Assembly: GCA_030390025.1 (NCBI GenBank)
Contig: CM059431.1
Coordinates: forward strand, 109,122,001 to 109,186,000
DNA: 64,000 nt
Direction: 5' to 3'
From: Squalus acanthias
Lineage: Eukaryota
Part shown: piece after piece, positions 38,925 through 64,000 of the stretch
How the letters are laid out: each line of letters opens with the position of its first letter
Position numbering within the stretch: position 1 is the stretch's first letter
The notes under the pieces: generated by a model
Seen by the model: only the letters and a program-made list of their open reading frames with translations
Database searches by the model: none
Told to the model about the DNA's origin: nothing
Position numbers and translations under genes: made by a program

Positions 38925-39230
38925 TATTCATTTGTGGGATGTGGGCGTCGCTGGCAAGCCCAGCATTTATTGCCCATCCCGAGTTGCCCTTGAGAAGGTG
39001 GAGGTGAGCCGCCTTCTTGAACTGCTGCAGTCCGTGTGGTGAAGGTACTCCCGCAGTGCTGTTAGGGAGGGAGTTCCAGGATTTTGACCCAGCAACGATG
39101 AAGGATCGGCGATATACTTCCAATTCAGGATGGTGTGTGACTTGGAGGGGAACTTGGAGGTGGTGGTGTTCCCAAGCGCCTACTGCCCTTGTTCTTCTAG
39201 GTGCTGGAGGTTACGGGATTGGGAGGTGCC
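38925..39230 (-). mobile_element. Non-LTR retrotransposon 3' end, same family as 32990-33320
   Basis: ORF 38824-39123 shares the peptide. Confidence 0.75.
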
Positions 39231-40112
39231 CATTATGCAACGGTTTACACAGAAAAGGAAACAAAATTGTGGAAATGTGACGCCAAAACACTGATTGAAA
39301 TCCTGAAATCCAATGGAATAAAAAGGAATTTGGCAGATTCAGTCACCTTGTAGCAATGGCCTTGGTCATTGCAGGGTTGTTTTTTCAGTCGTATGTTTTA
39401 TTTTTTGAGCTGTCACCTTTTTAAGAGCTGTGTCAGCTATTCTGAAGCTGTTTGTCAGCTTTACTGAGCTGAGGAAGTAGACACGCATGACATCTCCATT
39501 TCTGACATGTTAGGCTTACATGACAGTTTAGTTTAAAAAGAAACTGCCCATTAAAGCAATGAAGGTAGTTAAGCTGTTTGGCTTTGTTTGAGGATGAACA
39601 CTTACATAAATTATGGAAAGTAGACCACTTTGCGATTGTTTAATGTGGGATAAATAAAACACACATCAGGGGAAGATTTTCCGTGTTCGCTCTACGTGTT
39701 TTTATGATTTGGCTGCAAATGGTAAATAGAGAAGACCCTGGTAGAGCCTGGAAGCAGCGAAAATCAGAAATTTGTGTGGGTCAGAGAACTATCCCGGTTT
39801 TCCGATCGTTATCGTGAATTTGGGTGCAGGCTCGGGAAAATCTCCAAGAGAGAAATCTAGCTGAACAGCTCAGATGAGGCCATAAGCCATTGCAGTGAAA
39901 TGGAAATGCTTCAAATCCATCATCTGAACTGTACGATTAGATCATTGCCAGTAGACTCCAGAATGCCTGATATTTTTATTCTAGAACATGGAGCTGGGAA
40001 GGGCATAACTGTTCTGGTTCAGTTTTGGCTGGAAACAGGAGTCAAAGTAAAAATGGAAAACCACGATGATCCAAAACAGTGTCCTCTTTGATGGATTAAT
40101 GATTACAATGAA

Positions 40113-40577
40113 GTGTCAGCCCTGGCTCAGTGGGTAGCACACTCGCCTCTGAGTCAGAAGGTTGTGGGTTCAAGTCCCACTCCAGAGACTTGAGCACATA
40201 AAGCTAGGCTGACACTCCCAGTGCCAGTGCTGAGGGAGCGCTGCACTGTCGGAGGTGCCGTCTTTCGGATGAGACGTTAAACCGAGGCCCCGTCTGCTCG
40301 CTCAGGTGAACGTAAAAGATCCCGTGGCGCTATTTCGAAGAAGAGCAGGGGGAGTTATCCCCGGTGTCCTGGCCAATATTTATCCCTCAATCAACATAAA
40401 AACAACAGATTATCTGGTCATTATCACATTGCTGTTTGTGGGACCTTGCTGTGCGCAATTTGGCTGCCGTGTTTCCCACATTACAACAGTAACTCCACTT
40501 CAAAAAGTTGGTTGTAAAGTGCTTTGAGACGTCCAGTGGTCGTGAAAGGCGCTATATAACTGCAAGTCTTTCTTTCT
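40113..40577 (+). mobile_element. Full-length Deu-domain-type SINE
   Basis: A box 40123-40133, B box 40167-40177, CpG-rich core, tail GAAAGGCGCTATATAACTGCAAGTCTTTCTTTC. Confidence 0.9.
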
Positions 40578-42049
40578 TTAGTTACTGAAAATTTACCAAA
40601 TTCTGGGTAGATTTATAGTCAGTGGTTGGAAACTCTATATTTTAACAGTCAGTTCCTGTTATGTACTGTTGATTTGATGGGGTGGTTTTAGTCAGTCTCA
40701 GGGTACATATTGCTGATGTTTGTGGCTGTCAGCATAGTCTTAATCAACCAGCATACTTCATATTTGACATGCAATGATGTCCACACCAAAGTATTCATGA
40801 TTGCAATGTCATTAACACAAGTAGTAATCTGTCTGGGAAAACTATGAACAATATGCAGATATTGCAGAGATAACAGAAGCGAATCGCAACTGTTATTTGA
40901 CACCACACCTGTTTCATAAATCATGCTACATCAAACTTATCGGAGAAGACTGGATCCTTTTACAAAGGTCTGTCGTGGCACTTTAATTTCCTATACATTT
41001 GTATAGCAGCCAGCAGAAATGAATTGTGGCTCTGCTGTTAGTATTTGATGTTGACTGTGCTCGGTAAATCACTGGGCTCTCAGATTTCTGTAATCCATTG
41101 TCAGATTCATTCAGGGACATGATCAGACAAATAGGGTTAAAAGACAGCTGCAAGTCCTGCCTTTGGAGCTGCACTCATTCAAAGTTCCACACATCATATA
41201 TTCCCCCACACCATATCGCATGAAGTCCCCCAACCTGCATCTTCTCGTGACCAAAATTTAGTGCTGCATTTTATTTGCAAGACCCGGACAGTGCGCGTGC
41301 ATGAATTTAAAAATCGCACAATCGCCTGCGCAAATCACCTGTCAGACTTTAATACGGAAAACGCATCGAAAGAAAGGGGAAACTAAATGCATCTTCAATC
41401 ACAAAAAAGTGTTCTAAATCAACTATAAATTGTAGCTTTTTAAATAGAAATGGTTACCCAGTCAGGTTATGTTGATGGATCAGTTGGTAAGGTCAGCCTT
41501 AAATAGAGAGCCCAAAAGTTTCTGGGTTCAATTGCTGACCTTAGCAGATCTTATTCAGACAGGCCAGATCTGAACCAGCTTTTTGCCAGCACATCATCAT
41601 TCACTAAAACAAAGGAAAGAGGTAATTTTATTTAACCAAAACTTGCACTTATCAGGGTATTTACCACTTAAGACCTTTATTGGTAAGTTAAAATGAATGC
41701 TGTTAACGTTGGGCAAAAATGGGATCTGCAATGGAGCATTTTCCCAATTCAGCCAACACTAAGCATTGGCTGATCAAGTATAACACAGTTCTCTTTACTG
41801 TGCTCCAGCAAAGTCTTCTAACCCTCATTTCAAAAGAGAAACTCCAACTTTACCACTTCACATGCCAGCCATCCCTACTAGGAATGGAATTGAAACCGTC
41901 CAACCTCATTTCACAAAGATATTTAACTATCACAGAAGAATGCAGTTCGTCTGCCTTGGTTTGAATATGTAATCAGCTGGTAGAACATATCAGATCCTCC
42001 GTATTTTCATTGTCTCAATATTTGAATTACATTCTCCAGTTTCTAAAGG

Positions 42050-42880
42050 TTTACTGCCTCTGTTCCAAATTGATAACCCTACATCTTATGCTGATCCCAT
42101 TTTGTTCAATCCATTCTGGCCTCCCATCTCATCATTCCACAACCTCACACAGACATCTGTTACAAGCCCACTAACTCCCACAACTACTTAGGTTTCTTCC
42201 TAGCCCATTCTCTGTAAAGACTCCATCCTTTTTTATAAACCAACCAGTGCCTTTTATCTCTGTCATACCCCATTCTAATATCTCCACTTTCCACACCAGA
42301 GGTTCTGAAATGTTCTCCTTTTTCCTCAGCTGACGTTTCCCCTTGGCTGAAGTGCTTGACCATATCTGATCTATTTCCCATACATCAGCTTTCAATCCCT
42401 CTCTCTCCTCTCAGCAACAATAGAGTCCACCTTCCAACCCACTAGTCTCGGTATTCAGAAGATCATTTTCCACCGTTCTACCAAGCAAATCTTCCCCTCA
42501 TTTCCCCTCTCTCTCTACTTTCAAAAAGGACCATTCCCCTCAGGTTCATTCTTCTATCACCTCGACTTTCTACTGCTCTTCCCCTGTCACTTTTCCATGC
42601 AATTATAGCATTCATTCATCTCTTCCTACACCATTGTCCAAGGCCGCAAACACTTCTGCCATGTGACACAGTAATTTATGTGTACTTCTTCCAACCTATT
42701 TGCTGCTCACATTGGGAACACCAAATACAGATTGAATGACCACTTTGCCAAACACCTCCATCTTACTTGCAAGAATGATCCTGACCTCACTGTGACTCAC
42801 TAAGTCAACTCTGCCTCTTCATTTCCACTTGGACCTATCCATCTTTAGCTCCCTAAACTGTCCAATCAAGCTCCAATAGT
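42050..42880 (+). mobile_element. Highly degraded Penelope-like RT/GIY-YIG remnant
   Basis: YKPTNSHNYL-type motif near 42160; 42590-42880 resembles 35050-35380. Confidence 0.65.
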
Positions 42881-43189
42881 GAGGGTAATTTTCTGAGTGT
42901 CAACCGGTAGTGGGAGACCTCACCCGCCACCAGCGTGTACTTGAAAATGAGTCCAATATCTCATCTTTCTCCTGAGTGCTCTGCAGCCCTGTCAAAACAT
43001 GGACCTTTGTAACATCAGGCTTTAGCTATCTCCCATTTTCTTAAGAGTCAGCGGGTGCTAGGGATGTGCGACGAGTGTGTTAGCATGGAGGCGGGGTTGG
43101 GGGGAGTTGGCAGATTGACGTAATGGTTGTAGACACTTTATCAGAACACAGTTCTGACAGGGGATCTACAGCTGGCATGTTACAAAGTA

Positions 43190-43615
43190 TTACAATGTAT
43201 TTGTAGCACAGAAACAGGCCATTCGGCCCAACAGGTCCATGCCAGTGTTTATGCTCCACATGAGCCTCCTCCTACACCTATTCATCCACCCTCATCAACA
43301 TATCCTTCTATTCCTTTCTCCCTCATGCGCTTATCTAGCTTCCCATTGAATGCATCTCTACTATTTGCCTCAACTACTCCCTGTGGTAGCGAGTTCCACA
43401 TTCTCAACACTCTCTGGGTAAAGAAGTTTCCCCTGAATTCCTTATTGGAATCATTACTGACTATTTCATATTTATGGCCTCTAGTTTTAGTCTCCCCTGC
43501 AAGTGGAAACATCTTCTCTGCATCTGCCCTAACAAACCCTTTCCTAATCTTGAAGACCTCCATCAGGTCACCCCTCAATCTTCTCTTTTCGAGAGGAATG
43601 AGCCCCAGCCTGTTG
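43190..43615 (-). mobile_element. CR1 3' fragment
   Basis: ORF 43282-43578 (RGDLMEVFK...WNSLP). Short 3' ends of the same subfamily occur at about 3660-3755, 16550-16722, 35825-35942 and 53510-53680. Confidence 0.87.
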
Positions 43616-44305
43616 ACCTCTCTAATCTCATTTAGAGTCCTTGGAGGCCTTGTTGTACATTTCGAGCATTTTCGGTTTTTATTTCCGAACTTTCCCCATT
43701 TTCTTTCTTCTTTGAGCTGTTTTTGTACAGGGAAAAACTCAACGCAAGTACAAAATGGTCAACATAAAAACACAATGCAAAGCTGAGTAAACCCTCATCA
43801 TAACATTAACAGGAATATAGTTGGCAGTGTTTTGTGACTTATAACCTTAGTTAAACCCCTTCATGAGATCGCCAGCCTGTAATCACTTTTTGGTACCCAC
43901 TATTATACATATCATAACTCATTAGCTCTAAAGTGCAGCTCTGCAAATACCAGAATAAGTTATTAGGAGCTCTATTTGTTTTAAAAACTAATCTTCTCCC
44001 CTGTCTCATTTGGTCTTATTAAAATCAGTGGGAGACTGCCTCCCAGACTAATTGGCAGGAACAGCATTTCACTTGTTTTGATGGCATCAGGTCTATTGGA
44101 ACTCCTGGGATTTTAAACGCAGATTGTCTTCAATGAATAAAAGTCACCTCATTATTTTTAAGGAGGCAAACTACAGCAAAGTTTTAGCCAAGGAAAGTAA
44201 AGGCCAACACCCAGACTACTTCTGAAGCACCAAAACAATTGTTATTTCCTGGTGTAGTGGAGAAAAAGGACATAAACTTGAATCTACCAGTCAAAATCAG
44301 CCCAA

Positions 44306-44805
44306 CCTCGGCTGCCCGCGTCCTAACTCACACCAAGTCCCATTCACCCATCGCCCCTGTGCTCGCTGACCTGCATTGGCTCCCAGTTGAGCAAAGTGCC
44401 AATTTTAAAATTCTCATCCTTGTTTTCAAAACCCTCCATGGCCTCGCCTCTGCCTATCTCTGTCACCTCCTCCAGCCCTACAACCCTCCGAGATCTCTGC
44501 GCTCTTCCAATTCTGGCCTCTTGCGCATCCCCCAATTTTCATTGCTCCACCGTTGGTGGCCGTGCCTTGAGCTGCCTCGGCCCTAAGCTCTGGAATTCCC
44601 TGCCTAAACCTCTCTGCTTCACTACCTCTGTCTCCTCCCTTAAGACACTCCTTAAAACCTACCTCTTTGACCAAGCGTTGTCACCTGTCCTAATATCTCA
44701 TGCGGCAGGGTGTCAAAATTTGTTTGATAATACTCCTGTGAATCAGCGTGGGACGTTTAACTGTGTTAAAGGCGCTATATAAATGGATGTTGTTGTTGCT
44801 GTTGT
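44306..44805 (+). mobile_element. L2-clade LINE 3' end
   Basis: ARVLTHTKSHSPIAPVLADLHWLPV and KLWNSLP in the ORF track; (GTT)n tail. Confidence 0.87.
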
Positions 44806-45392
44806 CAAGGCTCGTAGAAGGGCACTCACCTTCTTCAAGATTCAGCAATCCAAAGTAAGCCATCTAGTGCTGATTAAAAATTAAACTTCCCTGATCTTAA
44901 ATCATTAAATCAAAGGAGACAAGAAGGAGTTTGAGCAGGAGGAGATGTCATTAAAGACGATCAAATAACAGCCTGCTCCTTTTCACTGAGGGAGGTACAA
45001 AATGACTAAGTACTTAAAATAACAACAAAATGCTCTAAAGTGTATTGTGAGGCAGAAGTACAGCTTACTCAAGACACGTTTCAACAACACCTGCGAATAT
45101 TTAACTGGAACTGGGATTAAGTAATCACCTGCCTTCAACAACCATTTGTTCAGGCTTATTGCGATGATTTGTAATGGGAAACCAAACCGCATTTGCATCC
45201 ATTTGTTTTAAGCAAGCAAGCAATTTTTTTTTTGTTTTTTTGCTTGGCTTGTATTGTCTGTTCATGTCCAACTGTATTCTGTTTCATAACATTGGTACTA
45301 ACAATAAAATATTGGAAAAACGAGTACTGAATATAAATATATAAAGGCGGTATTATTGCAGCCTTGGGCACAACGATGTGAGTAAAGGCATC

Positions 45393-45765
45393 GGGTTGCC
45401 AACCCTCCAGGATTGCCCTGGAGTCTTCAGGAATTGAAGATTAATCTCCTGGACACTGCTGCGAGCAACCCAGGAGAAAAATCACAGGGGCATTAAAAAT
45501 TGTGGGTTTTTTCAAATTTTCTTTGAGCACTTTAGTTTACTAGTTATAAAAATATCAGACATGGGGGAGAAAGGCTGTTTGACTGACAGTCAAGATCATC
45601 CAATCGAGCAATGAAGAATCTATTGGCTTTCCGATTGGTGTGGGAAGGCGGTGCTCCGTGAGTATGGGCGTGTTGGGCGACCAATGGCGGGAGTGTGGGG
45701 GCAGGGCGGCTGGAGGCAGGAGGTCTCCAGCTCCAGGAATGCGTCCAACCAGAGTTGGCAAAGCC
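45393..45765 (+). mobile_element. MITE, AGGGTTGCCAAC family
   Basis: GGGTTGCCAACCCTCCAGG...CCAGAGTTGGCAAAGCC. Confidence 0.8.
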
Positions 45766-47659
45766 TACATGTGACGTTGCCAATTATCACTATTTCCCGC
45801 TATTCCATTATCTGTGGGCAACAGACAGTCACAAACGACAGATGACAACAACAAACTAGACGCTGATGTTCAAATTCCAGGATTAAGGCCTGTGAGGAGC
45901 ATGGTGAAGTAAATGATAGTGACGCTAGGGCAAGGGAAAAGGACAGCGATTTTTCCCGATAGTTAAACAGATCCGCAGGTAGCAAAAAGTGCCAAGAATC
46001 ATTAGTGACTGTATTAAATCAGTTTTCTGCTGGTCCCAAGGGTATCTTCTTGCTCACTCTTACACTCAGGGCAATAGCTTTCCGGTAGGCTTACAGTGCA
46101 CATTTCAGAAGGATTGTTAGGTTGTGCACGCTGTTGGAACAGAAATCATTTTGCAGAATTTACGTTGTGCTGCAATTATGGTCTGACATGCTACGCATAA
46201 GTGACGCAGAGATCCACAACCAGGGAACAGGTGTTGGGAGACTTCATCATAATTTCTGTCTATGGATTTTAATCACTGCGGTATAACAATGGCAACTTCT
46301 CGTGATTGATTTGAGTCATTCGCAGCTGATGGTTGAACAGCAAATGTTCTACTATTGTTCCTTGTATTTTCAGCTATTTATTGTTATAAATAACTCTCGG
46401 GGAGGCTAACCATTTGCTAGTTTATTTTCCAAAAGATTTGTCCTTAAAATAGTAATTAGTAGTGACACTGTGCATTAGTCAGCTGTTAATACAATTAGCA
46501 ATAATTCAAAAGTAATAGTACACTTAACTATATTGTCTTTTGCTGAATTCTTTCATCCATAGAGGTCTTATGGCTCCCCTCTGAATGCAAAGCTGAAATC
46601 AATTTATACAGTATTGTCTTCCTTAGTGTGTAACTATTTTCCACTGTTCAAATAAGCTTATTTGTAGTATAGACAGGTACTTTGAAACTGCAGTAGTCAT
46701 CCAAAAAGTAATCAATGCCTTATCACTAATCTCCCCACTGTACCGGAGGGGACCCTTTGTTACTATGAATATGATAGCTGGAAAGGAAAAATAAAGAATA
46801 TATAAAAATTAAAAATGCTACTTGTTAAAAAATCTCCAACAACAATTAAAACCTGAAGAAATGAGACTATAATAGTTCATTTTCAGTGCCAGAGTGGTTG
46901 ATTGGCAGTAATTAACACTCATCACATCATTAAAGGGTACTCAGACATGAAATGGACAAGGCTTAACTTTCTCTGATGAGTTTAGTTCGTGTCGACCACG
47001 CAAATACAGCAACTTCACCGTTCAATGCATTTCAATGGTGAGGCAGGCAGCGAAATGCCATTTACGTGAAGCTATCAGTGGAGCAATGCGTCTCGGACAG
47101 CAACTTTTGGATATTTCAGTTTAACCACGCATCTGCCCCTCACCTGAAGTTCATGTACCATTTGCGCATAAATAATGGTGACGCCATTAGCCTCGCCATT
47201 ATTTTGATAGCATATTATGGCCCAATAATTTACCCTACATTCTTATTGTCGTTCCAATGAGAGTCGTTTTCACCTAATCCCGTAACATCAACATTATTCC
47301 CAGTACATCTCCATTTGAAGTTGTAGAAAGAGACCGGTATTTGGGCGCCATCATACAATGGGCAGCAAGTGGCATTCATAGTTTCCAAATTTTACTAAAT
47401 AGCTATTAATTGATTAAATTTAAAGAAGTAATAACTCAATTCTTTTTCAGTGCCATAAGCTCCAAATAGCAAAGCAGGCTAATCACATTCACCCGTACAA
47501 ATCAATACTCTCCCAAATCTCAGAAATGATCAGCTCAACTATTCCTACAAAGGGAATAATTTTTGGCAGATCTGCACACTCATCAACAAATATACATCAC
47601 ATTTTTAAACACATATCGGAATCCATTTCTGCTAAACATTCGTCACCGACCTTTTCCAC

Positions 47660-48030
47660 TGGAGCAGAGTAGACTATGAGGAGATTTAATGGAAGTTTTT
47701 TAAGATTATGAAGGGTTTTGATTGAGTGAATAGAGAATGGCTATTTCCTCTGGTTAGGCAGACATTAATGAGCGGTCATTAAGTTAACATCATCACTAAG
47801 AGAGTGAGGAAGAAAATTCTTCATACAGAGGGTTGTTGGAGCTTGGAATATTTTACCACAATGAGTGGCTGAGGCAGAGACCATTGCATCTTTTAATGGA
47901 ATAAAACTGAATAAATATTTGAAGCAGAGGATGATATGGGGAGAGAACGGGGCAGTGGGATCAGTTTTGGATTGAGCTAACACAGATGTGATGGGCTGAA
48001 TGGCCTCCTTCTGTGCTGTAAATTTCTATG
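47660..48030 (+). mobile_element. Degraded CR1 3' fragment
   Basis: Decayed LEQ.RL.GDL.EVFK coding pattern and 3' UTR. Confidence 0.7.
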
Positions 48031-49185
48031 GATCGAAATGGAGAGACGATGGTGGTGACTATGGGGGTGCAAAACAGGCAGTCGAGGATCAGCCGTTTGT
48101 TGTACTACCCGCCCAATTTTCCTTTTCATGGGGGTCAAAGGTGAATTGCACCCCCTACGGAACAAACTAGCTGCCATTTATTAAAAGGGTTCTCCTCTTC
48201 TAGCAACTATCCCTAAAATGGTGGCTTGCCGCAAATAGCTTCTGTTGTGAAGCAGAATCCAGTCAGATTGCCAATGACCGGTCACAGAAGAATGAAAATC
48301 ATTTCTGGGACCCGAGCAATGCTGACAGATTTTTACTTCATAAATGCAGCTTGCTGTAGGGAATTAAAATAAACAAAATAAAATAAAATCAATCTTACAG
48401 TGAGTGAAGTTTTGATGTATAAGTGCTGGCAGCTCACATTGCCCAAAGCGCAAAAATCAGTTTTGCCATTTGATAATTTGCTCGATTCACTGCACTGCCC
48501 CATGTAGGGCAGTTTATGCCTGATTTATGTTTAATTGAGTCACCTGCTCAATGTTAAGGAGGGTCGCAGTCAGACAGACGGGATATAACTGTTTAAGCAG
48601 GATGCTTTGGGCATTTCCTGAATAAACACAAAGGCATCTTACAGCAATGCATATACGTGACACCACTGCAAACCCAACGCTGGATATGCCCACCTAATTT
48701 ACGGGCTTGCGCAGATAACAGCAAAAGATAAAAATCCAATTTTAATCAATGCAAAAATACTCATACTTTTTTTTTAAATGTCAACCGACATCTTGTCATG
48801 ACCTTTGGAAACTTCTCCCCGCCAATTCTCTGACTGAGTTTCATTCATAAAGAGAACGATTGAAACAGACATTGTTGCTTGAGATTTCTGACTTGCAAGT
48901 CAATTTTTTTTTGCTTTAAAACACATCTTATTGTGCCCTCCAACACAATGGCAAACCCGCAGCAGTCTTTTCAATGATTATTTTACTCAGTTTAAAGGAG
49001 CCATGCAAATATTAACATGCTTCTCAAGACCCTCTGAAATTACTTGCGCATTCTCGGGGCCTGGAGCATGTACTGACGCAGTCCGATGGACCCCATCCAT
49101 TCTATATTCTGACAGTGTCAGCTTGCAAAATTAAAATGGTGTTATCATTGCAGAAAATGTGTCTGATTATTGTACAGTGGGGCAC

Positions 49186-52100
49186 ATGTGAACAAATTCC
49201 CCTGTGGGACGGTGATGTGAACAAATTCCCCTGTGGGACGGAGATGTGAACAAATTCTCCTGTGGGACAGAAAGTGAACAAATTCACCTGTGGGACGGAG
49301 ATGTGAACAAATTCCCCTGTGGGACAGAAAGTGAACAAATTCACCTGTGGGACGGAGATTTGAACAAATTCACCTGTGGGACAGAAAGTGAACAAATTCT
49401 CCTGTGGGATGGAGATGTGAACAAATTCACCTGTGGGACGGTGATGTGAACAAATTCCCCTGTGGGACGGTGATGTGAATAAATTCCCCTGTGGGACGGT
49501 GATGTGAACAAATTCTCCTGTGGGACAGAAAGTGAACAAATTCTCCTGTGGGACGGAGATGTGAACAAATTCCCCTGTGGGACAGAAAGTGAACAAATTC
49601 CCCTGTGGGACGGAGATGTGAACAAATTCACCTGTGGGACGGAGATGTGAACAAATTCACCTGTGGGACGGAGATGTGAACAAATTCACCTGTGGGACGG
49701 AGATGTGAACAAATTCACCTGTGGGACGGAGATGTGAACAAATTCACCTGTGGGACAGAAAGTGAACAAATTCACCTGTGGGACGGTGATGTGAACAAAT
49801 TCTCCTGTGGGACAGAAAGTGAACAAATTCACCTGTGGGACGGAGATGTGAAGAAATTCCCCTGTGGGACAGAAAGTGAACAAATTCCCCTGTGGGACGG
49901 TGATGTGAACAAATTCACCTGTGGGACAGAAAGTGAACAAATTCACCTGTGGGACAGAAAGTGAACAAATTCCCCTGTGGGACGGAGATGTGAATAAATT
50001 CACCTGTGGGACGGAGATGTGAACAAATTCTCCTGTGGGACGGAGATGTGAACAAATTCTCCTGTGGGACGGTGATGTGAATAAATTCACCTGTGGGACG
50101 GAGATGTGAACAAATTCTCCTGTGGGACGGAGATGTGAACAAATTCACCTGTGGGACGGAGATGTGAACAAATTCTCCTGTGGGACGGAGATGTGAACAA
50201 ATTCTCCTGTGGGACAGAAAGTGAACAAATTCCCCTGTGGGACGGAGATGTGAACAAATTCACCTGTGGGACGGAAAGTGAACAAATTCACCTGTGGGAC
50301 GGAGATGTGAACAAATTCACCTGTGGGACGGAGATGTGAACAAATTCACCTGTGGGACGGAGATGTGAACAAATTCTCCTGTGGGACGGAGATGTGAACA
50401 AATTCCCTTGTGGGACAGAGATGTGAACAAATTCACCTGTGGGACAGAGATGTGAACAAATTCACCTGTGGGACAGAAAGTGAATAAATTCACCTGTGGG
50501 ACGGTGATGTGAACAAATTCTCCTGTGGGACAGAGATGTGAACAAATTCCCTTGTGGGACAGAGATGTGAACAAATTCACCTGTGGGACAGAAAGTGAAT
50601 AAATTCACCTGTGGGACGGTGATGTGAACAAATTCACCTGTGGGATGGTGATGTGAACAAATTCACCTGTGGGACAGAAAGTGAATAAATTCACCTGTGG
50701 GACGGAGATGTGAACAAATTCAATTGTGGGACGGAGATGTGAACAAATTCCCCTGTGGGACGGAGATGTGAACAAATTCAATTGTGGGACGGGGATGTGA
50801 ATAAATTCACCTGTGGGACGGAAAGTGAACAAATTCACCTGTGGGACGGAGATGTGAACAAATTCACCTGTGGGACGGAAAGTGAACAAATTCCCCTGTG
50901 GGACGGTGATGTGAACAAATTCACCTGTGGGACGGGGATGTGAATAAATTCACCTGTGGGACGGAGATGTGAACAAATTCACCTGTGGGACGGAAAGTGA
51001 ACAAATTCTCCTGTGGGACGGAAAGTGAACAAATTCTCCTGTGGGACAGAAAGTGAACAAATTCTCCTGTGGGACGGAGATGTGAACAAATTCTCCTGTG
51101 GGACAGAAAGTGAACAAATTCACCTGTGGGACAGAAAGTGAACAAATTCACCTGTGGGACAGAAAGTGAACAAATTCACCTGTGGGACAGAAAGTGAACA
51201 AATTCTCCTGTGGGACGGTGATGTGAACAAATTCTCCTGTGGGACAGAGATGTGAACAAATTCTCCTGTGGGACAGAGATGTGAACAAATTCTCCTGTGG
51301 GACAGAAAGTGAACAAATTCCCCTGTGGGACAGAAAGTGAACAAATTCACCTGTGGGACAGAAAGTGAACAAATTCTCCTGTGGGACAGAAAGTGAACAA
51401 ATTCCCCTGTGGGACGGTGATGTGAACAAATTCTCCTGTGGGACAGAAAGTGAACAAATTCACCTGTGGGACAGAAAGTGAACAAATTCACCTGTGGGAC
51501 GGAGATGTGAACAAATTCACCTGTGGGACAGAAAGTGAACAAATTCCCCTGTGGGACGGAGATGTGAACAAATTCACCTGTGGGACGGAGATGTGAACAA
51601 ATTCACCGGTGGGACGGAGATGTGAACAAATTCACCTGTGGGACGGAGATGTGAACAAATTCACCTGTGGGACGGAGATGTGAACAAATTCACCTGTGGG
51701 ACAGAAAGTGAATAAATTCACCTGTGGGACGGAGATGTGAACAAATTCACCTGTGGGATGGTGATGTGAACAAATTCCCCTGTGGGACGGAGATGTGAAC
51801 AAATTCACCTGTGGGACGGAGATGTGAACAAATTCAATTGTGGGACGGTGATGTGAACAAATTCACCTGTGGGACGGAGATGTGAATAAATTCACCTGTG
51901 GGACGGGGATGTGAATAAATTCACCTGTGGGACGGGGATGTGAACAAATTCACCTGTGGGACGGGGATGTGAATAAATTCACCTGTGGGACGGGGATGTG
52001 AATAAATTCACCTGTGGGACGGGGATGTGAATAAATTCACCTGTGGGACGGGGATGTGAATAAATTCACCTGTGGGACGGAGATGTGAACAAATTCACCT

Positions 52101-52760
52101 GTGGGACGGGGATGTGAATAAATTCACCTGTGGGACGGAGATGTGAATAAATTCACCTGTGGGACGGGGATGTGAATAAATTCACCTGTGGGACGGAGAT
52201 GTTAAAAAATTCACCTGTGGGACGGTGATGTGAACAAATTCACCTGTGGGACGGAGATGTGAATAAATTCACCTGTGGGACGGTGATGTGAACAAATTCA
52301 CCTGTGGGACGGGGATGTGAATAAATTCACCTGTGGGACGGGGATGTGAATAAATTCACCTGTGGGACGGGGATGTGAATAAATTCACCTGTGGGACGGG
52401 GATGTGAATAAATTCACCTGTGGGACGGAGATGTGAACAAATTCACCTGTGGGACGGAGATGTGAACAAATTCACCTGTGGGACAGAGATGTGAACAAAT
52501 TCACCTGTGGGACGGTGATGTGAACAAATTCACCTGTGGGACAGAGATGTGAACAAATTCACCTGTGGGACGGGGATGTGAATAAATTCACCTGTGGGAC
52601 GGTGATGTGAACAAATTCACCTGTGGGACGGAGATGTGAATAAATTCACCTGTGGGACGGGGATGTGAATAAATTCACCTGTGGGACGGGGATGTGAATA
52701 AATTCACCTGTGGGACGGAGATGTGAATAAATTCACCTGTGGGACGGTGATGTGAAGAAA
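49186..52760. repeat. 28/29-bp minisatellite, about 120-125 units
   Basis: Units GATGTGAACAAATTCACCTGTGGGACGGA (29) and AAAGTGAACAAATTCACCTGTGGGACAG (28) head to tail with point variants and no spacers. Confidence 0.98.
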
Positions 52761-54239
52761 TGCAGTCCAGACTGATGGAGCAAATGTTCTCTTTGTCTGA
52801 TGACTGCTAGGGTCCTACGTGAATTGATCTTCTGCAGTTTCATTGTAGTTCCTAATGTGCATGGGCCGACAGCCCAAAACTGCTCGTAATTTAGCCCAGA
52901 TTGGCATTCCGACTCGGAGTATTGACACACTGGCGCAGTAAAGCATTCATTTCCGCTGTTGTGGTTTAGGAAATTTGTTGGGGAAGCGAAGAGAGAGCTT
53001 TGCATCAGGCTGTCCTGTTCCTGATCTGCGAGTGCTTGATGCTGATAGAGGATGCCTCAAATGAGAAGCATCCCCAGCACTAATATCCCTCACCCTGATG
53101 AGTGCAAAATATATTTTCAAGTATTTTTTTTAAAGAGAAAATATTTCAGAAAAAATACAGAAATCTGGTGAGATGGAGACAGAGACCTCAGGGACTCCCA
53201 TTAATCTGCTTGGAGATCCCTAGGGCCAGGGGCACCAGTTTGAAAACCTATGATTAACCTGTAATAGAAAGTGGAAATGCAAGTGCTGTATACTTATACT
53301 GCTATTGGTAAAGCTTAGACTGTTCTAAGCTGTAATTGCTTATCTCCGTTTCCCTCTCCAGTCACCAAAATGCTTAAACAGTTTATTGCTTGTGCTTTGG
53401 ATGCACTTCTCAAATGGAGTATTTTCTCCTTTAAGAGTCTTTTTGATGCTATCCCATTAGATCCTCATTAATACAACACTGACAGGCCATTCAGGCTTTA
53501 AGTTTGGAAAGTAAGATGCACTTAACAGGAATCTAGATAAGTGCATGAGGGAGAAAGAAATAGAAGGATATGCTGATAGGGTGAGATGAAGTAGTGTGGG
53601 AGGAGGCTCGTGTGGAGCATAAACACCGGCATGGACCAGTTGGGCCGAATGGCCTGTTTCTGTGCTGTAAATTCGATATAATTGATTCTTTGCCAAGCAG
53701 TTATGCAAGATTCACAGTGGTTCTATCCTGTTAAAGAAAGACAACCACCCACCCGACCCCCCACCTCCTAACAAACATAGAAGATACCCAATGATTGAAA
53801 CTAAATAAATGTATGTACAAAATCCCATATAATGATATTGAACAACATTTATTGCAAGGCATTCATATTTCATATTTCATTTAAAGTGGTTGTCTTACTC
53901 TGGTAAAGTCCTTGTCATTGAGAAATATTTCAAATTGAATGAAGGTATGATTGGCTACCCTTCGCTATTCTGTTGCCCGCTGAATGGTGGTGCTGCAATA
54001 TATTAGCTCATCCGATTTAATAAAGATACCAAGCTTTGGAAGTCCTGTCCATGTCTCGGCTAATTCCAATGTGGCATCTATCACGGCAGCTTTACAGTCG
54101 AGTTTTCACAATAGTCTGGCCATTCTAAGGACTGAGCCTGGTCCAAAATTCTGTTGTGCAGTGACACTGTCCTTTTAAGCATAATTTTGCAAAGTTAGAT
54201 AGTGAAAAGCAATGGTCAGTCAGCCAAACAATCCTCAGC

Positions 54240-54430
54240 TTGGTTGAATCATTGAATATATTCAAGGCGGAGATTGACAGATTCTTGAAAAACAGGGGAG
54301 TCAAGGGTTATGGGGAGTGGGCAGGAAAGTGGAGTCGAGGCCAAGGTCAGATCAGCCATGATCTTATTGAATGGCGGAGCAGGCTCGAGGGGCCGAATGG
54401 CCTACTCCTGCTCCTACGTCTTATGTTCTT
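54240..54430 (+). mobile_element. Short CR1 3' end
   Basis: SLNIFKAEIDRFL...GYGE plus 3' UTR matching 17445-17622. Confidence 0.85.
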
Positions 54431-54571
54431 ATTGGTTAGACTCGACTTCCACCCTCACCTCTGCCTCTACTTGCTCAATTTGCACAATTGCTTCTGCACT
54501 GTGGCACCCTGACATAGTTAATAAGTGCACAGTGGACTCTTCCATTTCGGCAGCCATTTTTAACCCATACA

Positions 54572-54900
54572 TGGTTCAAGCCTCCTTGAAAAAGTGCAAC
54601 ATCCCCACCAACACCTGGGAATCCCTGGCCCAAGACCGCACAAAGTGGAGGAGAAGCATCCGGGAAGGCGCCAAACAGCTCGAGTCTCTTCACCGGGAGC
54701 AAGCGGAAGCCAAGCACAAACAGCGCAAGGAGCGCACGTCAACCCAAGCACCCCACCCACCCGCCCCTTCAACCACCATCTGCCCCACCTGTGACAGAGA
54801 CTGTAGGTCCCGCATTGGACTCATCAGTCACCTGAGAACTCATTTTTAGTGTGGAAGCAAGTCATCCTCGGTTCCAAGGGACTGCCTAAGAAGAAGAAGA
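54572..54900 (+). mobile_element. RTE-clade LINE 3' end
   Basis: SLKKCNIPTNTWESLAQDRTKWR and a C-terminal C2H2-like motif CPTCDRDCRSRIGLISHLRTH; (AAG)n tail. Confidence 0.85.
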
Positions 54901-55734
54901 TACATGGGTACAATGAAGATTTGAAGCACGGTTGTGCCAATTCTTTTTTCCTGATCTGACAATTCAGGATAGCTTTTTATTCAATTATTGTTTAATATTT
55001 AAATAAAAAATGATTGATATATGACAAGCATAGTCAGTTGTACGGCAGTTTCACTGAAGGACAAAACCAGCAAGCTAATTATTGCCTGGCCTCGGTCACA
55101 TCCTATTCAAATATTTGCTGGATGCGTTTACTTATATTTTATAAACTGTCCATCAGAAGTCTGAGGAGTTTCAGGGAACTCAGAAAGACTGGAAGCAATT
55201 GCATGGAATGGTCAGTTTATTAATGGTGTCAAGACATCTGTTGTTAATTCAATATTGTTAAACATAATTGAGCAAATGTATCCTTGCCAAAAAGAGACAT
55301 TTTTGTGTAAGCTTTCAAAATAATATATAATTATAGTTTGTTTCGTAACTGAAGCACGAGGGACAATATTTACTGCAGCTAACATTGGTTGGCAATGACG
55401 AAGGATAAGAAAGGACACGACTTATCTGGCGCATCAAACTCGATCTTTCCAAAAAGCCATGCATAATTTGACTCATCAGGCATTCTATTCAACAAATGTA
55501 ATCTCCCGAGGAAAAGATCTGCAAACTTTTTTCTCTAACTGCTAAAAGATCGTCAACCAAACTGTCATGTACCAACCTACAGACACTCCCCATATTGACA
55601 GAGCCTATGGTGTGGATTGGCCAGTATGATGCCAGGGCTGGGGAACGATAGTTCTGAGGAGATACTTGAGATACTGGGATTATTTTCGACGGAGCAGAGA
55701 AGGCAAAGAAGAAATTGAATAGAGGATTTTAAAA

Positions 55735-55966
55735 GCAAAATACTGCGGATGTTGGCAATCTGAAATAAAAACTGAAAATGCCGGGAAACGCTCAGCAGGT
55801 CCGGCAGCCTCTGTGGAGAGAGAAACAGAGTCAACATTTCAGGTCGATGACCCTTCATCAGAACTGGATGAACCTTTCGACCTGAAACGTTGACTCTGTT
55901 TCTCTCTCCACAGATGCTGCCTGACCTGCTGAGTATTTCCAGCATTTTCTATTTTTATTTATTAGG
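55735..55966 (-). mobile_element. Compact Penelope-type inverted-pLTR insertion
   Basis: Inverted arms matching 35720-35822; 11-bp TSD GGATTTTAAAA (55724-55734, 55967-55977). Confidence 0.85.
55829..55865 (-). ncRNA. Hammerhead ribozyme motif (stem III palindrome mutated)
   Basis: Minus strand AGTT CTGATGA AG GGTC atc GACC T GAAA TG TT GACT. Confidence 0.6.
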
Positions 55967-56666
55967 GGATTTTAAAATCCTGAAGCGTTTTGATAAGAGT
56001 GAATAAGGAATGACTATTTCCTCTGGTTTGGGAGGCAGTGATGAGGGGACCACAATATAAAATGAACACTCTGACAGTGAGGAGAGGGCTGAGGAGAAAT
56101 CTCTTTCTGCAGAGAGCTGTTAGAGCCTGGAGTGCTTTGACACAGGGCGTGGTTGAGGCAGAGACCATTGTAGCTTTTAACTGAGGAGTAGACAAATATT
56201 TTCAACCAGAGGAAGAAACTGTGGGGGTGAATCTCCTTGGAAGTTCTCCCACTCTGCCATCATAGATTCACTAGAAGTGCAGTGGAAACTATGGGCTGAA
56301 TCTTAACTCCCAAAAACGAGCGGGTTGGGGTCGGGTCAGAAATTGAAATGCAAAAAAAACTGAAACAGGAACCCAACCCGCCTCAAACCCACCCACTTCC
56401 AGTTTTAACAGAGGTGGGACGAGCGACCAATCCGCTCGCGGGAAGCATGTTGGTCATTTAAATATTATAATGAAATATTATAATGAGGTACCTGCCTTCA
56501 TTTTAACAGTCATTCTATTTTTAACTCATGTCGGCCGGATCTCCCTGACCTCAGGAAACCCAGCAGGTGAAAGGAGGCGGGAAGGGTTGAATCCATGAGG
56601 GAAGTGCCTTTACAGCACTGATTGTGGGCCAGGAGGAGAAGGAGCGTTTCCTCCAGGCCCAACAAG

Positions 56667-59600
56667 CCCCCCGACCACCATCAGACACCCCCCCGACCAC
56701 CATCAGACCCCCCCGACCCCCATCAGACCCGCCCCGACCACCATCGGACCCCCCCCGACCACCATCGACCCCCCCCGACCACCATCGACCCCCCCCCGAC
56801 CACCATCGATCTCCCCCGACCACCATCTGACCCCCCTGACCACCATCGACCCCCCCCCCGACCACCATCGATCTCCCCCGACCACCATCTGACCCCCCTG
56901 ACCACCATCTGACCCCCCCCGCCGACCACCATCGACCTCCCCCGACCACCATCGGACCCCCCCTGACCACCATCTGACCCCCCCGACCACCAGCGACCCC
57001 CCCCGACCACCATCAACCTCCCCCGACCACCATCGGACCCCCCCGACCACCATCGACCCCCCCCCCCCCCGACCACCATCGACCTCCCCCGACCACCATC
57101 GGACCCCACCGACCACCATCAGATCCCCCCCTGACCACCATCGGACCCCCCCTGACCACCATCTGACCCCCCCCGACCACCATCGATCCCCACGACCACC
57201 ATCGACCCCCCCCGACCACCATCGGATCACCCCCCGACCACCATCGATCCCCCCGACCACCATCGGACCCCCCCGACCACCATCGACCCCCCCGACCACC
57301 ATCGATCCCCCCGACCACCATCGGACCCCCCCGACCACCATCGACCCCCCCGACCACCATCGACCCCCCTGACCACCATCTGACCCCCCCCGACCACCAT
57401 CGACCCCCCCCTGACCACCATCGACCCCCCCCGACCACCATCGACCCCCCGCTGACCACCATCGACCCCCCCCTGACCACCATCTGACCCCCCCCGAACA
57501 CCATCGACCCCCCTGACCACCATCTGACCCCCCCCAACCACCATCGACCCCCCTGACCACCATCTGACCCCCCCCCGACCACCATCGGACCCCCCGACCA
57601 CCATCAGACACCCCCCCGACCACCATCGGACCCCCCCGAACACCATCTGACCCCCCCCGACCACCATCGACCCCCCTGACCACCATCTGACCCCCCCCAA
57701 CCACCATCGACCCCCCTGACCACCATCTGACCCCCCCCCCGACCACCATCGGACCCCCCCGACCACCATCAGACACCCCCCCGACCACCATCGGACCCCC
57801 CCGAACACCATCGGACCCCCCGACCACCATCGACCCCACTGACCAACATCTGACCCCCCCCAACCACCATCGACCCCCCTGACCACCATCTGACCCCCCC
57901 CGACCACCATCAGACCCCCCCGACCACCATCGGACCCCCCCGACCACCATCGACCCCCCTGACCACCATCTGACCCCCCCCCAACCACCATCGACCCCCC
58001 CCGACCACCATCGACCTCCCCCGACCACCATCGGACCCCCCGACCACCATCAACCCCCCCGACCACCATCGACCCCCCTGACCACATTCGAATCCCCCCC
58101 CGACCACCATCTGACCCCCCCGACCACCATCGGCCCCCCGACCACCATCAGACCCCCCCGACCACCATCAGACCCCCCCGACCACCATCGGCCCCCCGAC
58201 CACCATCAGACCCCCCCGACCACCATCAGACCCCACGACCACCATCGACCCCCCGACCACCATCGACCCACCCGACCACCATCGGCCCCCCGACCACCAT
58301 CGGACCCCCCCCGACCATCATCAGACCCCCCCGACCACCATCAGACCCCACGACCACCATCGACCCCCCGACCACCATCGACCCCCCCGACCACCATCGG
58401 CCCCCCGACCACCATCGACCCCCCCCGACCACCATCAGACCCCCCCGACCACCATCGGCCCCCCGACCACCATCGACCCCCCCCGACCACCATCAGACCC
58501 CCCCGACCACCATCGACCCCCCCGACCATCATCAGACCCCCCCGACCATCATCAGACCCCCCCGACCATCATCAGACCCCCCCGACCACCATCGACCCCC
58601 CCGACCACCATCGACATCCCCCGACCACCATCGACCCCCCCGACCAACATCAGACCCCCCCCGACCACCATCAGACCCCCCGACCACCATCGACCCCCCC
58701 CGACCACCATCGACCCCCCCGACCACCATCGACCCCCCCGACCACCATCAGACCCCCCCCCCGACCACCATCGATCCCCCCGACCACCATCAGACCCCCC
58801 CCCGACCACCATCAGACCCCCCGACCACCATCAGACCCCCCCGACCACCATCAGACCCCCCCCCCGACCACCATTGACCCCCCCGACCACCATCAGACCC
58901 CCGACCACCATCGGACCCCCCGACCACCATCAGACCCCCCCCGACCACCATCGACCCCCCCGACCACCATCAGACCCCCCCCCGACCACCATCGACCCCC
59001 CCGACCGCCATCAGACCCCCCCCCGACCACCATCAGACCCCCCGACCACCATCGACCCCCCCGACCACCATCAGACCCCCCGACCACCATCGACCCCCCC
59101 GACCACCATCGACCCCCCGATACCATCGACCCCTCCGACCACCATCGGACCCCCCCGACCACCATCGACCCCCCCGACCACCATCGACCCCCCCGACCAC
59201 CATCGACCCCCCAACCACCATCAGACCCCACGACCACCATCGACCCCCCGACCACCATCGACCCCCCCGACCACCATCGACCCCCCGACCACCATCGACC
59301 CCCCCCCCCGACCACCATCAGACCCCCCCCGACCACCATCAGACCTCCCGACCACCATCGGACCCCCCCGATACCATCGACACCCCCCCGACCACCATCG
59401 GACCCCCCCGATACCATCGACCCCCCCCGACCACCATCGGACCCCCCCGATACCATCGACCCCCCCCGACCACCATCGACCCCCCCCCGACCACCATCGG
59501 ACCCCCCCGATACCATTGACCACCCCCGACCACCATCGACCCCCCCCCGACCACCATCAGACCCCCCCGATACCATCGACCCCCCCCGACCACCATCGAC

Positions 59601-62600
59601 CCCCCCCCCCCGACCACCATCAGACCCCCCGACCACCATCAGACCCCCCCGACCACCATCGGACCCCCCGACCACCATCAGACCCCCCCCCCGACCACCA
59701 TCGACCCCCCCGACCACCATCAGACCCCCCGACCACCATCGACCCCCCCCCGACCACCATCAGACCCCCCGACCACCATCAGACCCCCGACCACCATCGG
59801 ACCCCCCGACCACCATCAGACCCCCCCCGACCACCATCGACCCCCCCGACCACCATCAGACCCCCCCCCGACCACCATCGACCCCCCCGACCGCCATCAG
59901 ACCCCCCCCCGACCACCATCAGACCCCCCGACCACCATCGACCCCCCCGACCACCATCAGACCCCCCGACCACCATCGACCCCCCCGACCACCATCGACC
60001 CCCCGATACCATCGACCCCCCCGACCACCATCGACCCCCCCCCGACCACCATCAGACCCCCCGACCACCATCAGACCCCCCGACCATCATTGACCCCCCC
60101 GACCACCATCAGACCCCCCGACCACCATCAGACCCCCCGACCACCATCGACCCCCCCCCCCCCGACCACCATCGACCCCCCGACCACCATCAGACCCCCC
60201 GACCACCATCGGACCCCCCGACCACCATCGGACCCCCCGACCACCATCGGACCCCCCGACCACCATCGACCCCCCCCCCCCGACCACCACCGGACCCCCC
60301 CGATACCATCGACCCCCCCCCGACCACCATCGGAACCCCCCGATACCATCGACCCCCCCCCGACCACCATCAGACCCCACGACCACCATCGGCCCCCCGA
60401 CCACCATCGACCCCCGACCACCATCGGCCCCCCGACCACCATCGACCCCCCCCGACCACCATCAGACCCCCCCGACCACCATCGACCCCCCCCCGACCAC
60501 CATCGACCCCCCCAACCACCATCGGCCCCCCGACCACCATCGACCCCCCCGACCACCATCAGACCCCCCCGACCATCATCAGACCCCCCCGACCACCATC
60601 GACCCCCCCCGACCACCATCGACATCCCCCGACCACCATCGACCCCCCCGACCAACATCAGACCCCCCCCGACCACCATCAGACCCCCCCGACCACCATC
60701 AGACCCCCCGACCACCATCGACCCCCCCCGACCACCATCGACCCCCCCGACCACCATCAGACCCCCCGACCACCATCGACCCCCCCCCGACCACCATCGA
60801 CCCCCCGACCAACATCAGACCCCCCCGACCACCATCAGACCCCCCGACCACCATCAGACCCCCCCGACCACCATCAGACCCCCCCCCGACCACCATCAGA
60901 CCCCCCGACCACCATCAGACCCCCCCGACCACCATCAGACCCCCCCCCGACCACCATTGACCCCCCCGACCACCATCAGACCCCCGACCACCATCGGACC
61001 CCCCGACCACCATCAGACCCCCCCCGACCACCATCGACCCCCCCGACCACCATCAGACCCCCCCCCGACCACCATCGACCCCCCCGACCGCCATCAGACC
61101 CCCCCCCGACCACCATCAGACCCCCCGACCACCATCGACCCCCCCGACCACCATCAGACCCCCCGACCACCATCGACCCCCCCGACCACCATCGACCCCC
61201 CGATACCATCGACCCCTCCGACCACCATCGGACCCCCCCGACCACCATCGACCCCCCCGACCAACATCAGACCCCCCCGACCACCATCGACCCCCCGACC
61301 ACCATCGACCCCCCCCCCCGACCACCATCAGACCCCCCCCGACCACCATCAGACCCCCCGACCACCATCGGACCCCCCCGATACCATCGACACCCCCCGA
61401 CCACCATCGGACCCCCCCGATACCATCGACCCCCCCCCCGACCACCATCGGACCCCCCCCCGACCACCACCGGACCCCCCCGATACCATCGACCCCCCCC
61501 CGACCACCATCGGACCCCCCGATACCATCGACCCCCCCCGACCACCATCGACCCCCCCCCGACCACCATCGGACCCCCCCCGATACCATCGACCCCCCCC
61601 GACCACCATCGACCCCCCCCCGACCACCATCAGACCCCCCCCGATACCATCGACCCCCCCCGACCACCATCGACCCCCCCCGACCACCATCGGACCCCCC
61701 CCGATACCATCGACCCCCCCCGACCACCATCGACCCCCCCCCGACCACCATCAGACCCCCCGACCACCATCAGACCCCCCCGACCACCATCGGACCCCCC
61801 GACCACCATCAGACCCCCCCCCGACCACCATCGACCCCCCCGACCACCATCAGACCCCCCGACCACCATCGACCCCCCCCCGACCACCATCAGACCCCCC
61901 GACCACCATCAGACCCCCCGACCACCATCAGACCCCCCGACCACCATCAGACCCCCCGACCACCATCAGACCCCCCGACCACCATCGACCCCCCCCCGAC
62001 CACCATCAGACCCCCCGACCACCATCAGACCCCCCGACCACCATCAGACCCCCCGACCACCATCGACCCCCCCCCGACCACCATCAGACCCCCCGACCAC
62101 CATCAGACCCCCCGACCACCATCGACCCCCCCCCCGACCACCATCAGACCCCCCGACCACCATCAGACCTCCCGACCACCATCAGACCCCCCGACCATCA
62201 TTGACCCCCCCGACCACCATCAGACCCCCCCGACCACCATCGACCCCCCGACCACCATCAGACCCCCCGACCACCATCGGACCCCCCGACCACCATCGAC
62301 CCCCCCGACCACCATCAGACCCCCCGACCATCATTGACCCCCCCGACCACCATCAGACCCCCCCGACCACCATCAGACCCCCCGACCACCATCGGACCCC
62401 CCGACCACCATCGACCCCCCCGACCACCATCAGACCCCCCGACCACCATCGGACCCCCCGACCACCATCGGACCCCCCGACCACCATCAGACCCCCCGAC
62501 CACCATCAGACCCCCCCGATACCATCGACACCCCCCGACCACCATCGGACCCCCCCGATACCATCGACCCCCCCCCCCGACCACCATCGACCCCCCCCCC

Positions 62601-63117
62601 CCCCGACCACCATCGGACCCCCCCCCCCCGACCACCACCGGACCCCCCCGATACCATCGACCCCCCCCCGACCACCATCGGACCCCCCCGATACCATCGA
62701 CCCCCCCCGACCACCATCGACCCCCCCCCGACCACCATCAGACCCCACCGATACCATCGACCCCCCCGACCACCATCAGACCCCACGACCACCATCGACC
62801 CCCCCGACCCCCATCGATCCCCCCGACCACCATCGACCCCCCCGACCACCATCGACACCCCCAACCACCATCGACCCCCCGACCACCATCAGACCCCCCC
62901 GACCACCATCGACCCCCCCGACCACCATCGGACCCCCCGACCTCCATCAGACTCCCCCCGACCACCATCAGACCCCCCCGACCACCATCGGACCCCCCCC
63001 CGACCACCATCAGACCCCACGACCACCATCAAACCCCCCGACCACCATTGACCCACCGACCACCATCGGACCCCCCCGACCACCATCGGACCCCCCCGAC
63101 CACCATCAGAACCCCCA
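56667..63117. repeat. C-rich minisatellite (Cn GACCACCATC[A/G/T/-]GA), about 20-bp unit, roughly 300 units
   Basis: Directly visible tandem array with variable C-run length. Confidence 0.98.
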
Positions 63118-63527
63118 CTGAGTGATCGTTCCCCACTCCCCAACCTGCGATCGGACCTCTGCGATCGGGACCCTCCCCCACGATCAGGAACCACCCCCCC
63201 ACAATCAGGACCCTCCCCCGTGCTCGGGACCTGCCTCCGCGATCGGGACTCTCCATCCCACCCCCCGCACTCGCTCACTCCCCCACTACACTGACCTCCT
63301 CTCGTAGGCTGTGGCCTTGTTAAATCCAGACCTATGTTACAAAGTTACAGTGGCAAAGCAGAAGGTCCAAAGAAATTAACTCCCATTGCTATGGAGAAAT
63401 AGTGGAGCAGTCGGATAAATTTTGAGTTGCTCTGACGTAAGAGTTGGCACCAACATGTCAGGGTAGAAATTGAAAAAAATGAGAAGTCGCACAACACCAG
63501 GTTATAGTCCAACAGTTTTATTTGAAA

Positions 63528-63565
63528 TCACAAGCTTTCGGAGCTGCTGCCCCTTCATCAGGTGA
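63528..63565 (-). ncRNA. Minimal hammerhead ribozyme motif
   Basis: Minus strand TCAC CTGATGA A GGGGC agca GCTCC GAAA GC TT GTGA. Confidence 0.8.
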
Positions 63566-63762
63566 AGTGAAGGAATACGAATCGGCAAAGCATATATAGA
63601 CAGATGTCTTTGATGTGGTGCCTTCCTGGCTGACCTGATTGTTTCTCTGCCGAGGTGTGATGAAAGGCAGTCAGAAAGATTAACTGTAGTTGTCTGACAT
63701 TGTACGCTACACAGGCATTGTTCTCTGTCTATATATGCTTTGCCGATTCGTATTCCTTCACT

Positions 63763-63800
63763 TCACCTGACGAAGGGACAGCAGCTCCGAAAGCTTGTGA
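63763..63800 (+). ncRNA. Minimal hammerhead ribozyme motif
   Basis: TCAC CTGACGA A GGGAC agca GCTCC GAAA GC TT GTGA; one stem II mismatch. Confidence 0.75.
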
Positions 63801-64000
63801 TTTCAAATAAAACTGTTGGACTATAACCTGGTGTTGTGCGACTTCTCACTTTTGTCCACCCCAGTCCAACACCGGCATCTCCGCATCATAGAAATTGAAA
63901 TGCATTTTGCCCATTTGTCGGGCCTAAAACGGGCGCAAGGCCTACCAATTTAGCAGTGGGGCGGCCCGCAAGCAATCTGTACAGGGGTTGGTCCCACCGC

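Follow-up and report, generated by a model that had tools for sequence, protein, structure and literature searches.

The minisatellite in intron 2 of DACH1 in this genome is best read as a locus-specific neutral repeat that grew from a chance splice-like 29-nt piece of the intron and is nearly inert in splicing, a reading to which we give a probability of about 0.68. The window, the whole stretch of 64,000 nt analysed here (G000:C7:109122001-109186000, within a 3.71-Gb assembly), holds one coding exon that we found (12806-12970, minus strand), and its 54-aa peptide matches dachshund homolog 1-like proteins of sharks at 100% identity. The remaining DACH1 exons, mapped with a full-length shark homologue, lie on the same strand from 109,397,054 to 108,906,450. 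The coding exons are spread across about 490 kb and intron 2 measures 73,014 nt. Since exon 2 is outside the window, the array is placed in intron 2, near its middle, the distance being 33,223 nt from the donor of exon 2 and 36,215 nt to exon 3. The features concerned, in window positions, are:

12806..12970, minus strand: DACH1 exon 3, 165 nt, phase 1, with the true acceptor of intron 2
12971..64000, minus strand: the portion of DACH1 intron 2 that falls in the window (complete intron G000:C7:109134971-109207984)
49186..52761, minus strand: minisatellite of 123 whole 29- or 28-nt units with partial units at either end, sense to DACH1, in intron 2
51866..52761, minus strand: 5' block in transcript direction, junctions 1-31, all AG/GT (coordinates from the unit string)
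52732..52761, minus strand: first partial unit and first CAG/GT junction (between 52737 and 52736), where the flank contigs of two relatives end
52762..53480, minus strand: single-copy sequence upstream of the array, with orthologues in organisms B and C

TRF describes the array at 49186-52761 with a period of 29, 124.4 copies and 92% matches. On the minus strand the 123 whole units are 29 nt long in 91 cases and 28 nt in 32, and they fall into 33 types; the two types named in the first-pass annotation are the first and third commonest (21 and 11 of 123). AGGT occurs at the unit borders, where it directly joins an acceptor AG to GT. Among the 124 junctions we found CAG/GTGAAT 79 times, CAG/GAGAAT 22, CAG/GGGAAT 17, CAA/TTGAAT 3, CAA/GGGAAT 2 and CCG/GTGAAT once. 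These counts bear out the earlier description of tandem acceptor-donor-like units on the DACH1 sense strand, the gene and strand being fixed by the exon 3 peptide, and the CAG/GAGAAT and CAG/GGGAAT units do retain the acceptor and lose the donor, as had been noted. AG/GT is gone from 45 of the 124 junctions (GT alone lost in 39, both in 5, AG alone in 1), and the 3.6-kb array carries 80 GT donors and 118 AG acceptors. In transcript order, AG/GT is retained in 31 of 31 junctions in the first quarter and then in 15, 19 and 14 of 31. The AG/GT positions are unprotected, with 5 of 15 variant alleles on those 4 of 29 unit positions (excess P 0.045, post hoc). A TTTAT variant is present in 28 units, many of them among the first 31 junctions. 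Unit positions 2 and 18 have two common variant alleles each, the allele sets are complementary (T/A/G and A/T/C), and both positions sit in the arms of a short inverted repeat, where template switching could yield such alleles. Compensatory pairing of these positions was ruled out, the alleles showing no covariation within or between units. A search of 46000-57000 against Rfam gave no matches.

The repeat is single-locus in this assembly, which has no other copies among which the strand bias first proposed could show. A 22-mer searched at up to 2 mismatches returned 124 matches, all on one strand and equal in number to the junctions, and the 100 matches listed are inside the array; a second pattern gave 8 isolated 2-mismatch matches elsewhere, against 11 control matches. 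With head-to-tail units of 10-100 bp, interspersed variants and one locus, the array is a single-locus minisatellite and a candidate VNTR, differing copy number being hinted at between species by depth (below).

Four public runs (of 21 listed) were aligned to a target made of the flank upstream and the first 83 nt of the repeat. The flank in organisms B and C is represented by one contig each, differing at 45 letters and gapped at 11 in some 740 nt (~6% diverged), and these contigs stop 27-30 nt into the first unit, the pattern to be expected at a border between unique and repeated sequence. Judging from the contigs, B and C hold at least the first unit and its junction at the orthologous place, which implies nothing on array length. 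Their loose-end consensus carries the unit onward with CAG/GTGA. The variants listed for B and C at unit positions 9, 18 and 20 are common to the window; the listed rows include no 28-nt deletion, and among the variants listed (at least 5%, 85% likeness filter; 6 rows and 193 loose ends not shown) none falls at the T of GT. By simple arithmetic, the chance of an identical consensus over 29 nt is about 0.17 when divergence is 6%, and the identity shows no constraint. The first junction is kept in B and C, but the flank itself is 94% identical, and the same class of site lost AG/GT in 45 of 124 window junctions. Summed repeat-bin depth in B and C was 1.3-1.6 x 10^5 against flank depths of 23.5 and 18.7; this depth is not a copy number and, once overlap inflation of 2- to 8-fold is allowed for, translates to some 1,700-7,900 units, an order-of-magnitude hint. 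It suggests thousands of units in these relatives, at a genomic location that depth does not fix. Organism D (X9) also contains the repeat; none of its contigs aligned to the flank, a gap that is not evidence of absence. Taken together, we show that the array originated in DACH1 intron 2, is old enough to be common to relatives, was homogenised in blocks and lost GT in this lineage.

The run X17 is guessed to be RNA (1 of 5 such runs) and matches the flank at 168 of 168 nt. It gave 23 contigs on that target; 3 of them aligned only in part, and the 6 loose ends of these 3 all lie at 52998-53110 and none at the repeat. As contigs drop rare forms, this speaks neither for nor against use of the sites. 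Its summed repeat depth of 400-1,200, against 3.4 on one flank contig, corresponds to 73-291 units and spans the background expectation of 124, while the top contig depth was 217, about three times the prediction from the commonest 31-mer (23 copies). Many contigs pile up at 52998-53110, where the loose ends resemble by eye a family of 67-nt tandem repeats found at L088:1914-2532 and L084:2487-2847. Most units of that family carry CAG/GTACAG; in L088 the repeat is sense to a myosin gene, and the acceptor is absent.

The splice-like signals were compared with real sites of the same genome. DACH1, its C6 paralogue and four myosin loci supplied 34 acceptors and 35 donors, from which position matrices were built; all 69 boundaries, placed by protein alignment, carried AG or GT, and the real sites were scored leave-one-out. 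The paralogue (G000:C6:108.5-108.8 Mb; L057, L072, L074, L070, L062, L073, L071, L068, L069) has exon boundaries identical to those of DACH1 and served only as a supply of real splice sites. On these matrices, which are small and ignore dependencies between positions, the acceptor and donor of the array are both mid-range. The commonest array acceptor outranks 14 of the 34 real acceptors, the acceptor of the 28-nt unit 23 and the weakest 2, and the array donor outranks 16 of the 35 real donors. As the first-pass annotation had it, the donor is one mismatch from the consensus, and that mismatch is at +5. A G at +5 is absent in 12 of 35 real donors, and its absence together with G at +3, as in the array, occurs in only one. 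Exon 2 reads CAG/GTAATG at its boundary. Because it ends in CAG, a splice from exon 2 to a unit would rebuild CAG/GTGAAT, the 9-mer already at the unit junctions; this rebuilt donor scores 8.9 bits against 9.7 for the true exon 2 donor, which also lacks the +5 G.

Neither 2 supplementary files of PMC10809524 nor 8 of PMC8797253 gave a MaxEnt value for the array 9-mer. The nearest tabulated 9-mers score 3.56 (one change from the array donor) and 8.55 (two changes) (PMC8797253 supplements), and in a literature search the only match to the 9-mer was a primer (PMC9239746, partial text). In another donor, a +5 G>A change lowered exon inclusion from 80% to 4% though MaxEnt fell only to 7.79 (same source and extent). 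On the acceptor side, the branch-point-like TTCAC and the pyrimidine tract that had been described are present. However, the tract is C-rich, with pyrimidines at 0.70-0.80 and T at 0.25-0.45 in the 20 nt before AG, against a median T of 0.5 in real acceptors, and its longest T run is 2-3. The A of TTCAC is at -17/-16, while the TTTAT variant places it at -21. Branch points have a core window of -18 to -35 and a wider range of 10-60 nt (PMC5378181, partial text). The TTCAC A thus lies just beyond the core window yet inside the wider range, and the TTTAT A lies within the core.

How often such a unit arises by chance was estimated in several ways. Circular mononucleotide shuffles of the main unit equalled it on both scores in 12 of 50,000 cases (0.00024), and dinucleotide-preserving circular shuffles did so in 33 of 30,000, or in 65 of 30,000 on the summed score. 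When 40,083 intronic 29-mers were treated as tandemly duplicated, none was equal on both scores and 14 were on the sum, while 98 attained the 10th percentile of real sites on both. The unit is thus a rare one, at roughly 1 in 500 to 1 in 4,000, the thresholds having been chosen after it was seen. Lone AGGT sites equal to the array on both scores numbered 0 of 237 on the sense and 2 of 195 on the antisense strand in 53.8 kb of the window, and on the summed score 1 and 4, respectively; a looser class gave 4 sense and 5 antisense sites in 40.1 kb. Lone sites of array quality show no sense-strand enrichment within the window, to which these counts apply. TRF (period at least 10, at least 4 copies) found 2 arrays, both of one family, in 97,884 nt from 30 non-redundant loci. 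Scaled up, in a very rough extrapolation, this would give of the order of 10^4-10^5 arrays and some to tens of such intronic arrays by chance. The absence of any other sense-strand site equal to the array on both scores in 53.8 kb counts against the neutral reading, as do the mid-range scores, the rebuilt donor close to that of exon 2 and the intron setting, which is like that of recursive introns. The B and C runs, with no listed variant at the T of GT, and the weak but used human dual-specific sites point the same way, and the masking by stems described next is a folding prediction.

Each unit contains GUGAA and its complement UUCAC. Stems between these motifs, within and between units, appeared in the minimum-energy folds of all 4 stretches folded (z 0.06 to -4.5, near 0 in one of the 4). 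Under local folding, the predicted chance that donor positions +1 to +5 are unpaired had a median of 0.0005 over the 80 array donors, a value as low as which was reached by 2 of 35 real donors, and the branch A was predicted open with a median of 0.25. The GUGAA/UUCAC stem is thus predicted to hide the array donor.

The neutral reading can be put as a series of steps. The seed would have been a 29-nt piece of intron 2 that held a fair acceptor followed by a weak donor, and it may have grown by slippage and unequal exchange, with slippage aided by the inverted repeat of the unit. Near-silence in splicing would follow from GUGAA/UUCAC pairing within and between units that covers +1 to +5 of the donor, from a donor with G at +3 and without G at +5, and from single units too short for exon or intron definition; size limits for exons and introns exceed 28 or 29 nt. 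A splice from unit to unit, or from exon 2 to a unit, would rebuild CAG/GTGAAT within a stretch that is in any case spliced out. Stray exons would mostly shift the frame or bring a stop and be degraded. The array may be tolerated because its sites are masked and any use regenerates an identical junction. Amphioxus mirage repeats, which bear AG/GT signals without disturbing splicing (PMC3087553, partial text), count in favour. A splicing function of the array is not supported, and chance resemblance, the fallback of the first-pass annotation, is the best-supported reading.

That annotation had also proposed a recursive-splicing zone, and the resemblance and the setting do fit. Known recursive introns are over 51 kb, rank first or second and belong to genes over 294 kb (PMC8797253), and the array sits in a second intron of 73,014 nt in a gene with a coding span of about 490 kb. 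Exon 2 might be spliced stochastically to one of the 118 acceptors and from there, or from the identical donor of a later unit, to exon 3, with splicing inside the array as well, so that the intron would come out in two pieces of about 33 and 36 kb in a measurable fraction of transcripts; such use need not be under selection. Both signals are mid-range, the array is mid-intron and exon 2 ends in CAG. The polymerase meets 31 intact junctions first, many with the TTTAT A at -21 inside the usual branch window, and many weak sites could sum. In humans, dual-specific AGGT sites are used despite being weaker than single ones (PMC10809524, partial text). However, the donor lacks the +5 G that is present in 20 of 20 mouse recursive sites, whose rebuilt donors score 8.31-11.81 by MaxEnt and whose tract T is at least 0.55 in 15 of 20 (PMC8797253 supplements 3 and 4), while the T content of the array tract is in the range of only the lowest 5 of those 20. 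GTGAA is outside the ten recursive motifs listed in the part of 10.1101/2024.12.11.627982 available, which also reports that recursive splicing is not raised in a giant lungfish genome, and fixed-site recursive splicing is rare in mouse brain (PMC8797253). With predicted masking and AG/GT lost at 45 of 124 junctions added, we consider a recursive zone unlikely. A bolder form, which we regard as improbable, is a self-excising satellite, whose units would be both acceptor and donor and which would remove itself piecewise, having grown to tens or hundreds of kb in DACH1 intron 2 of the relatives. The cost of its length would be low, as each splice at such a unit rebuilds the junction. If true, a vertebrate intron would here draw its ratchet points from its own satellite, a class missed by pipelines that filter repeats.

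The nascent repeat could instead bind U1 and U2AF without splicing and so slow or tune the removal of intron 2, more strongly in the relatives if their copies sit in that intron. The 80 GT and 118 AG within 3.6 kb, the depth hint of far more units in B and C, a donor-rich chicken tandem repeat that gathers spliceosome parts on nascent RNA (10.64898/2026.03.19.712899, partial text) and the ABCA7 VNTR, in which a donor opens the unit and array length tracks exon skipping (PMC5954066, partial text), all speak for it. However, the array has no donor excess of the kind described in that chicken repeat sponge, and the decoy proposed earlier loses ground on this count; it measures 3.6 kb against 160 kb and lies 33-36 kb from either exon, while the ABCA7 repeat abuts its exon. 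The predicted stems should reduce U1 binding, and T-poor tracts, such as that of the array, suit U2AF poorly. A decoy is thus also a reading of low probability. The cryptic exons first suggested, taken as repeat-derived exons, poison or peptide-adding, that tune DACH1 dose, would have 706 acceptor-donor pairs of up to 300 nt at their disposal, of which 657 shift the frame or carry a stop and 49 are in frame without a stop. Predicted insertions between exons 2 and 3 occur in 10 of 97 scored homologues, but none of the 10 resembles a translation of the repeat (by eye), and one from a shark maps weakly to 17707-17757, 31 kb from the array. At 28 and 29 nt the units follow no reading-frame logic, AG/GT is decaying, and dose-tuning exons seem to us highly improbable. 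The weak match itself (17707-17757, minus strand; 9 of 17 residues, E 0.039, with a stop) is to a predicted exon of a bamboo shark DACH1 isoform (P0014).

Other elements were seen in the window. A second array of 6.4 kb lies at 56667-63116 (19-nt unit, 325 copies by TRF); its DACH1 sense strand is rich in G, in runs of 5-8 G, and could form G-quadruplexes or R-loops, and its 7 AGGT sites have poor scores. An unbroken frame of 988 aa (21883-24849, minus strand, sense to DACH1) shows endonuclease- and reverse-transcriptase-like motifs and is presumably a CR1/L2-type LINE, with related fragments at 19828-20794 (minus) and 16922-17533 (plus). A short element at 55750-55945, whose halves look by eye like inverted repeats, is probably a dispersed repeat.

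The literature searched on DACH1 recursive splicing, splice-site repeats and shark satellites listed no description of the array repeat, subscription journals being outside the search. DACH1 is absent from the main text of 10.64898/2026.09.10.750672, whose supplementary 3,022 human sites could name it. Intronic minisatellites with splice-like units are already known and the array adds one; what is new is that it starts at the same place in two relatives, for which sequencing depth points to units in the thousands. The array, if neutral, is of little importance. The locus is nevertheless a convenient natural experiment, with one orthologous place, ~124 copies here and a crude hint of thousands somewhere in two relatives, and the GT-less variants inside the array are natural internal controls. 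One lariat pipeline drops sites in simple repeats (PMC10156609, partial text), so that recursive splicing within repeats is a blind spot, testable at this locus.

Vertebrate recursive splice sites, reportedly the subject of Sibley et al. 2015, share with the array AG/GT after a pyrimidine tract, a long second intron, a very long gene and a rebuilt CAG/GT. They are single, conserved, T-rich and nearly all GTAAG, whereas the array has 79 weak tandem copies, a C-rich tract and predicted masking, and its rebuilt CAG/GTGAAT lacks the +5 G of their strong rebuilt donors. The chicken LL2R repeat is likewise transcribed, tandem and dense in predicted splice sites, but has 446-bp units over 160 kb, a threefold donor excess (80 GT vs 118 AG in the array), its own transcription unit and observed snRNP recruitment (10.64898/2026.03.19.712899, partial text). 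The VNTR in ABCA7 intron 18 is intronic too, with a similar unit (25 bp), a donor per unit and variant units; it includes the true exon 18 donor and no acceptor, the donor of its second unit is used at about 2%, and its length effects were measured (PMC5954066, partial text). Amphioxus mirages resemble the array in their tandem AG/GT units, some of which lose signals, apparently with no effect on normal splicing, but they copy a true exon-intron boundary beside the exon (PMC3087553, partial text), whereas the array is >33 kb from any exon. A mirage origin was rejected, as the unit matches none of 38 DACH1/DACH2 boundaries (best local score 19, with 3 of 200 shuffles as good). In polyubiquitin UBC and 77 human repeat-multiple introns, AGGT also stands at unit borders and any donor could join any later acceptor and rebuild the junction; however, UBC units are of 228 nt, coding and frame-preserving, with use seen by RT-PCR (PMC10809524, partial text), while the 28/29-nt units of the array are deep intronic, outside the mature transcript and without whole in-frame units. 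If functional, the array would act like the tandem dual-specific sites of UBC or like a ratchet point.
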